Source of the DNA: Candidatus Magasanikbacteria bacterium CG10_big_fil_rev_8_21_14_0_10_36_32
Lineage (GTDB): Bacteria; Patescibacteriota; Patescibacteriia; Magasanikbacterales; GWA2-37-8
Direction of reading: 5' to 3'
Length of the DNA stretch: 64,000 nucleotides
Assembly (NCBI GenBank): GCA_002778465.1
Contig: PFBV01000002.1
Span: 2,312-66,311 of the forward strand
Below the pieces are notes generated by a model. That model saw only the letters and a list, made by a program, of their open reading frames with translations. It did not search any database and was not told the DNA's origin. Position 1 is the first letter of the stretch. Each line of letters starts with the position of its first letter. This document shows, piece after piece, positions 61,287 through 62,667 of this stretch. The translations under genes and the position numbers were made by a program.

Positions 61287-61820
61287 ATGAAGAAGGGAAT
61301 GTTTTTCGTTTTGTTCGTATTCGCGATTCTGTCCGTTTCCGCTTGTGGTAGCGCGCAGTTTCAGAACGTTGCGGATGATAATCCGATAACGGACCAGACC
61401 TGTACAGTCATCGTGGATCGTACCCAGTCGCTGGATGAGATGATTCAGGCGGGGCGGTACAGTTTCGTTTCTGATTACTTTACCGCTGAGAATTTCCCGG
61501 TAGAGCAGCCGCAGGTGGAGGTGGAGGTAACACTTCACGTCATCACCATGAATAGGGTGGTTACCACCAATGCAATTTTGGCTGAAATTGATAAGCGTGG
61601 TTTGCGTCCGGCGACCTTGTCGGAGCTATTGGCTTTCGGAGTCAAGTATCCGTCGGCCCAAAGACATTTTTCGGTCGTCGCTTTCGGTTCGATTTGGTCA
61701 ATTAGCGGTTTTCGTGTAGTGACCTTTCTGTCCGGTGACGATGATATTCGGGCGCTGAACATGGATTATTTTGGTGGTGATTGGGACGAAGCCACCCGTT
61801 TCCTTGCCGTCGTCAAGTAA
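61287..61820 (+). CDS. putative lipoprotein; markedly GC-richer than its surroundings
   Basis: Signal peptide with lipobox (LSVSAC). About 50% GC by eye, against ~36% for neighbouring genes. Confidence 0.55.
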   Translation: MKKGMFFVLFVFAILSVSACGSAQFQNVADDNPITDQTCTVIVDRTQSLDEMIQAGRYSFVSDYFTAENFPVEQPQVEVEVTLHVITMNRVVTTNAILAEIDKRGLRPATLSELLAFGVKYPSAQRHFSVVAFGSIWSISGFRVVTFLSGDDDIRALNMDYFGGDWDEATRFLAVVK

Positions 61821-61842
61821 ATCCCGTTCTTTTTTCAACATA

Positions 61843-61873
61843 CAGCCACCTCAGTTCTTGAGGTGGTTTTTTA
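61843..61873 (+). terminator. rho-independent terminator
   Basis: CCACCTCAG-TTC-TTGAGGTGG followed by TTTTTT. Confidence 0.6.
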
Positions 61874-61887
61874 TTGGATAGAGTTTT

Positions 61888-61917
61888 TTTAAATACCCAT
61901 TTAAATGGGTATTTAAA
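61888..61917. repeat. perfect 30-bp palindrome TTTAAATACCCATTTAAATGGGTATTTAAA (copy 2)
   Basis: Same element as 47128-47158. Confidence 0.55.
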
Positions 61918-62031
61918 AAAATATATAGTTCTTATTTTTTTATTTATTGACAGTAATTTTATTTTATTGTATATATACAGAATACTGTTCTTTTAAATCA
62001 ATCGGCCTAAGGGTCAAAAAAGGAGGTCCAA

Positions 62032-62667
62032 ATGGGCACAAAGGGAAGATTTTTGACGATTTTTGTTACATCGATTTTTCTCATGTTGGCCATTTTTACC
62101 GCCGGCTGCGCTGTTTTTTCGTCACAGGTGAAGGATGTTAAATCAGAAGATCCGAACAGAGCGCTGTTCAATCATTGGCATGCGATTTGTTTGAATGTTG
62201 ATGATGAAGAAGTTGATCATTTTGCGGCAGAGGAAATGTCCAAATTGACAGAACCTTTTTATGACGACTGGTTGTCTATTTTCATGTGTGCTCAATCCAA
62301 GAGTGATTTGAGCTATAAATCTTTGGCATGGGCAGGTCAGTTGTCATCAAAATTTTCTGAGATGAAAATTGTGGCACAGCTTGTATATTGGAAGAAAATA
62401 ACCGATGATGATGAACGTCTTCAAAAAATATTTCAGTATACACTATACAAAATGTACTGGGAGGCGGAGAGTTTTAAGGAGTGGGCTGTTGTAACTAAAT
62501 TTGCCAATTGTGAAACGTATAATGATTTATTTCTAGAGTCGCTGAGTCGTATGGCTAGTTTGGCCAATACTTTCAAGGAATGGAAATGTGTCTATGATAT
62601 TGCTCCTAAGGATAACGCGATTCGCAAGATTGCTTTTTACAGAATGATTGGGATGGTCAAACCGTAA
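62032..62667 (+). CDS. putative lipoprotein, hypothetical
   Basis: Signal peptide with lipobox (FTAGC). Moderately elevated GC. Confidence 0.5.
   Translation: MGTKGRFLTIFVTSIFLMLAIFTAGCAVFSSQVKDVKSEDPNRALFNHWHAICLNVDDEEVDHFAAEEMSKLTEPFYDDWLSIFMCAQSKSDLSYKSLAWAGQLSSKFSEMKIVAQLVYWKKITDDDERLQKIFQYTLYKMYWEAESFKEWAVVTKFANCETYNDLFLESLSRMASLANTFKEWKCVYDIAPKDNAIRKIAFYRMIGMVKP

Follow-up and report, generated by a model that had tools for sequence, protein, structure and literature searches.

How two lipoprotein genes came to lie between a KH-domain gene and trmD in a groundwater bacterium of the candidate phyla radiation (CPR, Patescibacteria), and what these genes encode, is the question raised by a 64,000-nt stretch (hereafter the window) of a contig from Candidatus Magasanikbacteria bacterium CG10_big_fil_rev_8_21_14_0_10_36_32. 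The two open reading frames, ORF1 (61287–61820, plus strand, 177 aa) and ORF2 (62032–62667, plus strand, 211 aa), are 100% identical to PIT88744.1 (COU29_00650) and PIT88745.1 (COU29_00655), respectively, and belong to a 250-kb contig. An earlier note, made from the sequence alone, had taken them for a horizontally acquired island of GC-richer lipoprotein genes inserted into a conserved operon from which rimM is missing. The interpretation favored here, with a probability of about 65%, is that ORF1 encodes a lipoprotein with a predicted C-type-lectin fold, derived from the target of a diversity-generating retroelement (DGR) and since frozen, that ORF2 encodes an unrelated lipoprotein, and that both were gained in a permissive spacer between CPR housekeeping genes.

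ORF1 belongs to no Pfam family, and NCBIfam returned only sub-threshold matches to lipoprotein-signal models over residues 1–48. A word-indexed search of a database of 5.8 billion proteins recovered 28 homologues at 35–49% identity and none above 49%, and a profile search extended the family to at least 159 members, the named ones coming from Patescibacteria and Magasanikbacteria. A Pfam scan of the 28 homologues gave scattered chance matches only, the family profile matched no PDB sequence, and Foldseek found no significant match among viral structures (BFVD). The family alignment displays a conserved core (…MI.AG.Y…FP…GLRPATL.ELLAFG…P.VALGS.W), an invariant RFLAV end and a variable stretch between them, and the AlphaFold2 model of ORF1 computed on this alignment reached a predicted local distance difference test score (pLDDT) of 86.9 and a predicted template modelling score (pTM) of 0.80. 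A domain of ~140 residues is predicted to adopt a C-type-lectin fold, with the stretch equivalent to a DGR variable region (VR) at its C-terminus (FGSIW...RFLAVVK; 61683–61817, plus strand, placed by alignment to the VRs of loci L176 and L177, which are described below).

The presence of two lipobox-containing genes between the KH gene and trmD, as stated in the earlier note, is borne out by a PROSITE PS51257-type rule (positively charged N-terminus, hydrophobic core and a lipobox whose final Cys falls within the first 35 residues), which both proteins satisfy. The signal peptide and lipobox of ORF1 (61287–61346, plus strand, a rule-based match; MKKGMFFVLFVFAILSVSA before the cysteine) read MKKGMFFVLFVFAILSVSAC, with Cys20 as the lipidated residue. 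In ORF2 the segment ...LMLAIFTAGC places the cysteine at position 26; its Thr at -3 departs from the strict L-[AS]-[GA]-C box. Judged by these signals, both products would be anchored to the membrane and displayed at the cell surface. A lipoprotein signal is rare in the ORF1 family (5 of 126 members examined), and the closest homologue of ORF1 (P0002) shares the MKKGMFFVL signal peptide.

The nature of the family is revealed by homologues of ORF1 in two other Magasanikbacteria (L176 and L177), which adjoin genes for bAvd (PF22296) and a 337-aa reverse transcriptase (RT; RVT_1, PF00078). Across the domain ORF1 is 41% identical to P0088 of L177 and P0119 of L176 (E 3e-36 and 2e-32). In both loci the last ~130–140 nt of the homologue gene are repeated near the RT gene; every mismatch between this template repeat (TR) and the VRs falls at a template adenine (14/14 in L177, 18/18 and 23/23 for the two L176 targets, 55/55 altogether), and the template copies encode runs of Asn (AAC). 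Adenine-only mismatches beside an RT identify L176 and L177 as textbook DGRs and the ORF1 family as their variable protein; homology places ORF1 in this CPR family of DGR variable (target) proteins. DGRs of this kind, which correspond to DGR clade 2 of Roux et al. 2021 (PMC8144416) and to the "CPR set" of Wu et al. 2018 (PMC5758913), are abundant in CPR (PMC8144416, PMC5758913). In such relatives the bAvd/RT cassette would copy the TR with adenine-specific errors, and the mutated copy would overwrite the last ~45 codons of the target gene, corresponding to the presumed ligand-binding face.

Other features of the family deserve mention. The 100 nt that follow the stop codon hold two to five copies of CTTGG in L176 (976–1075 and 1635–1735), L177 (4183–4283), L175 (4274–4374) and L004 (6565–6665 and 8550–8650), all of them after members that are DGR-linked or carry differences localised to the VR. 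This tail is absent after ORF1 and in L172 and L174, and a single copy is present in L086. In this clade of CPR DGRs the CTTGG-rich tail may serve in the recognition of the target. L004 encodes two paralogues of the family (6001–6564 and 7938–8549) that lie 2 kb apart and are 87% identical at the DNA level; their differences cluster in the VR-equivalent ~95 nt and one loop, no RT occurs within 6 kb, and a tRNA-like sequence, recognized by eye, is located upstream of the first paralogue.

Whether ORF1 is itself diversified was examined in the DNA within reach. No TR-like copy of its 3' end was found in the window plus extensions of ~11 kb (~75 kb in total of the 250-kb contig), tblastn queries with RTs and Avd proteins, two of each, gave no hit in the 64-kb window (best E 0.12), and no RT family occurred among the genes called in the extensions; as a DGR target active in situ, ORF1 was rejected within this reachable DNA. 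No ORF1 variants were seen, its 90%-identity cluster consisting of a single sequence on four contigs (a small sampling depth), and an independent ENA assembly (L178) is base-for-base identical over ORF1 and ORF2. The cluster of P0013 (L087), which served as a positive control, contains 12 near-identical variants, and the 10 that were aligned differ almost only in the VR-equivalent stretch; the P0013 gene has no RT within 6 kb. This variation is the pattern expected of an active DGR, and remote targeting exists in the ORF1 family.

The 3' end of ORF1 keeps a segment (CGxTTCCTxGCxGTC...AAG) like the initiation of mutagenic homing (IMH) sequence, the family end being CGxTTCCTxGCxGTCCGCAAG, in an altered form (…GTCGTCAAG) that encodes RFLAVVK instead of RFLAVRK. 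No copy of CTTGG follows the gene, compared with two to five after DGR-linked members, and ORF1 ends in a plain terminator. Given that no TR, RT or Avd was found nearby, that the CTTGG tail is lacking and that a lipoprotein signal is present, ORF1 most likely descends from a DGR target and now acts as a surface binding protein of fixed specificity that is no longer diversified. It would have retained the fold and the RFLAV(V)K end, together with a composition rich in G and C and poor in A at third codon positions inherited from its family.

ORF1 thus resembles the C-type-lectin variable proteins of CPR DGRs in its sequence, its predicted fold and a C-terminal variable-equivalent stretch ending in RFLAV(R/V)K, but differs from them in having no TR in ~75 kb, no RT/Avd in the window, no observed variants and no CTTGG tail, as well as in its lipoprotein signal. 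DGR-diversified lipoproteins with C-terminal C-type-lectin variable regions are LdtA of Legionella pneumophila and TvpA of Treponema denticola (Arambula 2013 and Le Coq & Ghosh 2011, as cited in PMC8144416); ORF1 has no detectable sequence similarity to either, is much smaller (177 aa) and has no demonstrated cognate DGR.

In the earlier note a compositional jump, next to the broken synteny, was taken to point to horizontal acquisition. The GC content of ORF1 is 0.498 and its GC content at third codon positions (GC3) 0.573, compared with window means of 0.367 (standard deviation 0.034) and 0.32 (standard deviation 0.06), respectively, over 48 ORFs, and the highest-GC 534-nt sliding window in the 64 kb falls on ORF1. 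On the basis of its own amino acids and the codon usage of the window a GC3 of 0.315 is expected, whereas 0.574 is observed (z 4.3), and no other gene of the window has so low a likelihood for its synonymous codons (z -4.25). The anomaly ends at the borders of the coding sequence and consists mainly of adenine depletion on the coding strand (A 0.200, z -2.8; third-position A 0.096), T being normal (z -0.5). ORF2 (GC 0.387, GC3-excess z 1.2, codon-usage z -1.0) falls within gene-to-gene variance, so that the description of two GC-richer genes holds for ORF1 but not for ORF2.

Even for ORF1 the compositional jump says little about a foreign donor. All 13 ORF1-family genes, from 11 loci, are GC-richer than their flanks and have a third-position A of 0.03–0.20; the difference between gene and flank ranges from +0.025 to +0.167 in nine family genes, in hosts of 36% to 58% GC, and family genes stand 5–28 GC points above AT-rich hosts and also above their own RT and Avd genes. 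The two variable-protein genes of L176 have a GC content of 0.64, compared with 0.33 for their own bAvd and 0.35 for their RT, and that of L177 has 0.44, compared with 0.28 for its bAvd/RT. The GC jump is therefore a gene-family trait and not the mark of a GC-rich donor, and composition alone is poor evidence for such a donor when every family gene is GC-rich, even beside its AT-rich RT and bAvd. This contrast is found inside single cassettes (L176, 421–3671; L177, 3613–6086), in which variable-protein genes and TR have 0.44–0.64 GC and bAvd/RT 0.28–0.35.

A tentative idea, judged somewhat unlikely, is that the GC3-rich, A-poor composition of the whole coding sequence is an actively maintained signature of the CPR DGR variable-protein family. 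It could be produced by selection against coding-strand adenines, confining adenine-directed mutagenesis to the designed sites, or by GC-biased repair or gene conversion accompanying retrohoming. Third positions in ORF1 (C 0.24, T 0.33, G 0.34, A 0.10) differ from those of an active member (C 0.55, T 0.04, G 0.36, A 0.05) in a manner suggestive of partial C-to-T decay once the gene had escaped the DGR. If the signature is indeed maintained, compositional scans would mistake genes of this kind for horizontally transferred islands, and ORF1 would be a lipoprotein derivative, domesticated and frozen, in which the signature persists.

The surroundings of the two genes comprise the housekeeping genes named in the earlier note: rpsP (ribosomal protein S16; 60247–60723, plus strand; Pfam S16, PF00886, E 1e-14), a KhpA/YlqC-type KH-domain gene (60759–61136, plus strand; PF13083, E 1e-22) and trmD (tRNA m1G37 methyltransferase; 62829–63494, plus strand; PF01746, E 5e-57). 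The strong terminator after the KH gene is also present (61147–61180, plus strand; a 15-bp stem followed by a T tract). In Firmicutes and E. coli the canonical cluster is rpsP-(khpA/ylqC)-rimM-trmD-rplS. The window has rpsP, KH and trmD in the same order and orientation, but lacks rimM and continues after trmD with the 16S rRNA gene (from 63809; Rfam SSU rRNA) instead of rplS. A hidden Markov model (HMM) built from 40 RimM sequences of the fetched loci confirmed the absence of rimM from the window (best E 0.25) and found no match in the loci of 11 CPR relatives.

For comparison, 160 related loci were fetched by TrmD from genome and metagenome collections. The Firmicutes among them (L046, L051, L074) have the canonical rpsP-(KH)-rimM-trmD order and the CPR loci have rpsP-KH-trmD (L006, L008, L014 of Falkowbacteria, L053 of Azambacteria, L088 and others), in agreement with two published reports that the majority of CPR genomes, or nearly all of them, lack rimM (PMC6744442, PMC12641178). 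Terminators equivalent to that of the KH gene follow KH in all close relatives examined (L006, L007, L008, L088, L089, L093). As this terminator is lineage-wide, no operon was broken in the window and rimM was not displaced: both the absence of rimM and the KH terminator are older than the insertion and have nothing to do with it. The rpsP-KH-trmD cluster appears not to be co-transcribed, KH and trmD forming what would be separate transcription units, also in the close relatives examined. Two links drawn in the earlier note, between the insertion and the missing rimM and between the insertion and a broken operon, are thus not supported.

The insertion itself is well supported. In 27 related loci trmD is directly preceded by KH, with no rimM between them; in 26 of these the spacer is non-coding and 17–468 bp long, the exception being L007 (below), and the spacer in the window measures 1692 bp. 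Neither ORF1 nor ORF2 occurs at this site in any of the 27 loci, which answers the synteny check proposed in the earlier note. The nearest relatives, L006 (77% TrmD identity, 307-bp spacer), L089 (75%, 107 bp), L088 (74%, 368 bp) and L090 (67%, 62 bp), all have KH, terminator, promoter and trmD in this order, with 62–368 bp of non-coding DNA between KH and trmD. L006 and L088 share the SMC-rpsP-KH-trmD order (SMC occupies 55741–58788 in the window, at the upstream end of the local block), and the trmD-16S linkage also occurs in L006 and L007. No remnants of ORF1 or ORF2 were detected by tblastn in the loci of 12 relatives. Empty spacers and lack of remnants make gain in this lineage the parsimonious reading, and a lineage-specific gain of both genes at an insertion-tolerant KH|trmD junction is well supported. 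A conserved Magasanikbacteria backbone (SMC, rpsP, KH, terminator, promoter, trmD and 16S), from which rimM had already been lost, would have offered a short spacer that tolerates insertions, and here two genes, each transcribed on its own and encoding a membrane-anchored surface protein, would have entered this spacer.

Other spacers at this junction also hold features of their own. L007 (70% TrmD identity) has a 3325-bp KH-trmD spacer that encodes an unrelated 1044-aa protein (1780–4914), secreted, Thr/Ser-rich and of native composition, a beta-helix-like putative adhesin. Two independent and different insertions suggest that the KH-trmD spacer repeatedly receives surface-protein genes in Magasanikbacteria, for which it may be a recurrent landing site. 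The spacer of L006 (49% GC) contains, downstream of the KH terminator, a ~200-nt GC-rich, structured-looking non-coding stretch (4760–4960) without Rfam match and not conserved in L088; this stretch may represent a small RNA peculiar to the lineage or the remains of a gene. A search of the relatives' KH-trmD spacers for known RNAs with Rfam (gathering threshold) matched only rRNA and tRNA.

ORF2 is of a different kind. The word-indexed search matched only ORF2 itself, so that the database search of the two lipoproteins, which the earlier note had proposed, gave no homologue above 49% identity for ORF1 and none but self for ORF2. An exhaustive HMMER search of 1.84 billion representatives recovered 29 remote homologues (E 3e-14 to 8e-4). 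Several matching stretches, as expected for repeats, occur in many of them; these remote repeat-family homologues led to the rejection of ORF2 as a strict orphan. The closest full-length homologues (P0032, P0033 and P0036) have the same architecture with "LAKSFxEW..VY" repeats, and P0032 carries a lipobox. Neither Pfam nor NCBIfam matched ORF2, and ten homologues gave no Pfam match above threshold. ORF2 is accordingly modelled as a divergent member of an unannotated "SFxEW" family of alpha-helical tandem repeats, native in composition, and is probably a protein-binding scaffold. It recalls TPR/Sel1-like helical-repeat lipoproteins (e.g., LpoP-type scaffolds), but matches no Pfam TPR or Sel1 model, and its "LAKSFxEW..VY" repeat defines an unannotated family. 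A strong Shine-Dalgarno sequence (AAGGAGG, ~62021–62027), a promoter-like site and a terminator indicate that ORF2 is very probably a real gene.

Strong terminators follow KH, ORF1 (61844–61874, plus strand, with a terminator-like hairpin at 61844–61868) and ORF2 (62737–62765, plus strand, with its hairpin at 62737–62757), and promoter-like sites precede both inserted genes. The sigma-70-type promoter of ORF1 (61196–61224, plus strand; TTGACA-17-TATATT with TG) is near-consensus and shares 87% identity with the rpsP promoter (60107–60136) in a 30-nt alignment. The promoter-like site of ORF2 (61947–61975, plus strand; TTGACA-17-TATATA) was read by eye, the consensus scan having missed it on account of the A at the last base of the second hexamer.

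The palindrome between ORF1 and ORF2, described in the earlier note as perfect and 30 bp long, is perfect but measures 38 bp (19+19; 61884–61921, AT-rich). A second copy at 47127–47158 has one mismatch in a 24-nt core (0 expected by chance) and a related shorter hairpin lies at ~20453–20478, all three members being intergenic; each of the two long copies closely follows a terminator hairpin and has a -35-like TTGAC ~25 bp downstream of it. No copy was found in the 167 loci searched. The four exact matches among 2.9 million viral contigs all belong to an unrelated phage hairpin of 48% GC, and the palindrome was rejected as a phage or mobile-element site. It is a native intergenic motif and not an insertion scar, possibly an operator or an auxiliary hairpin. 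Near the second copy, which lies just upstream, a partial duplicate of a tRNA 5' end (~47222–47275) precedes the intact tRNA (47529–47621), and an 80-aa GIY-YIG-like ORF (47285–47527) has sub-threshold NCBIfam matches to UvrC and group I intron endonuclease models. This arrangement (47222–47621) resembles a homing-endonuclease insertion beside a tRNA.

Three other explanations of the locus may be weighed against these data. A recent joint import of ORF1 and ORF2, as one small island from a GC-richer donor that broke the rpsP-KH-rimM-trmD operon, is quite unlikely: it accords with ORF1 being the most atypical gene of the window by GC3 excess and synonymous codons, with the absence of both genes from all relatives at the site and with the lack of close database matches for either, but ORF2 is native in composition, the anomaly is confined to the ORF1 coding sequence, with promoter, terminators and intervening palindrome of host type, and the GC excess recurs in every family member examined, including those beside an AT-rich cognate RT/Avd. 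The rimM loss and the KH terminator are older than the insertion, and neither integrase, transposase, flanking direct repeat nor tRNA occurs at the borders, within 60000–63900. No ORF2-like gene was found near ORF1 homologues in the loci searched, and a co-travelling ORF1 and ORF2 pair was rejected on this account. Of the small lipoprotein island proposed in the earlier note there stands the lineage-specific addition; the donor composition, the hallmarks of mobility and the single joint import are not borne out. It is very improbable that both genes were ancestral at the site and repeatedly lost, even though CPR genomes are reductive and spacer size varies between relatives, since 26 of the 27 related loci, including the three nearest relatives, have no gene there, the other occupied site (L007) holds an unrelated one, and the tblastn search without remnants in relatives led to the rejection of this scenario.

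The third explanation is that ORF1 is an active remote DGR target, whose VR-equivalent stretch (61683–61817) is still rewritten by RT, Avd and TR located elsewhere in the genome. Remote DGR targets are documented (PMC5758913, PMC8144416), members of the family in L087 and L004 vary in the VR without an RT within 6 kb, and ORF1 retains the conserved 3' segment; on the other side stand the single ORF1 sequence on four contigs and the identical independent assembly, the lack of a TR within ~75 kb, the missing CTTGG tail and the altered IMH-like end, and this explanation is considered unlikely. Several points nevertheless weigh against a frozen ORF1 beside an unrelated ORF2. The search for TR and RT reached ~75 kb of the 250-kb contig and both could lie beyond it, the L087 population is hypervariable in spite of having no RT within 6 kb, which argues for remote targeting in the family, and the four ORF1 contigs may share one site or dataset, so that the absence of variants is weak evidence. 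In addition, repeated transfer from GC-richer CPR genomes may be the source of the GC-richness of the family, and the structure model of ORF2 is moderately confident (pLDDT 66).

Within these bounds, a function-level annotation, as C-type-lectin-fold DGR variable proteins, becomes available for a CPR family of at least 159 members for which neither Pfam nor NCBIfam has a model. Its lipoprotein subgroup, apparently detached from any DGR, provides candidates for surface binders of fixed specificity in episymbiotic bacteria, a group in which few of the proteins used for host attachment are known. The locus also calls for caution in the detection of horizontal transfer by composition, the GC jump being a trait of the gene family and the missing rimM a trait of the phylum.

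Some further features of the window are worth recording. The second strongest compositional outlier, with a GC content of 0.45, a GC3 excess of z 2.2 and a codon-usage z of -3.2, is a gene at 36223–36747 that stands alone on the minus strand, flanked by two giant genes on the plus strand. Its product carries a lipobox-type signal (Cys38), matches neither Pfam nor NCBIfam and bears no evident similarity to ORF1. Between SMC and rpsP lies an unannotated 372-aa ORF (58876–59994) of normal composition and without family match, which is absent from L006 and L088; the SMC-rpsP junction measures only ~90–110 bp in these two loci, which points to another lineage-specific insertion in the same conserved block. 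Finally, rpsP has a Pro/Glu/Thr-rich C-terminal extension encoded by 57-nt tandem repeats (PAETPVETSVEQPIAPVET; 60553–60723), the number of which varies: in L178 (7476–7895), an assembly of the same strain that is nearly identical elsewhere, one repeat is missing and the protein has 139 instead of 158 aa.

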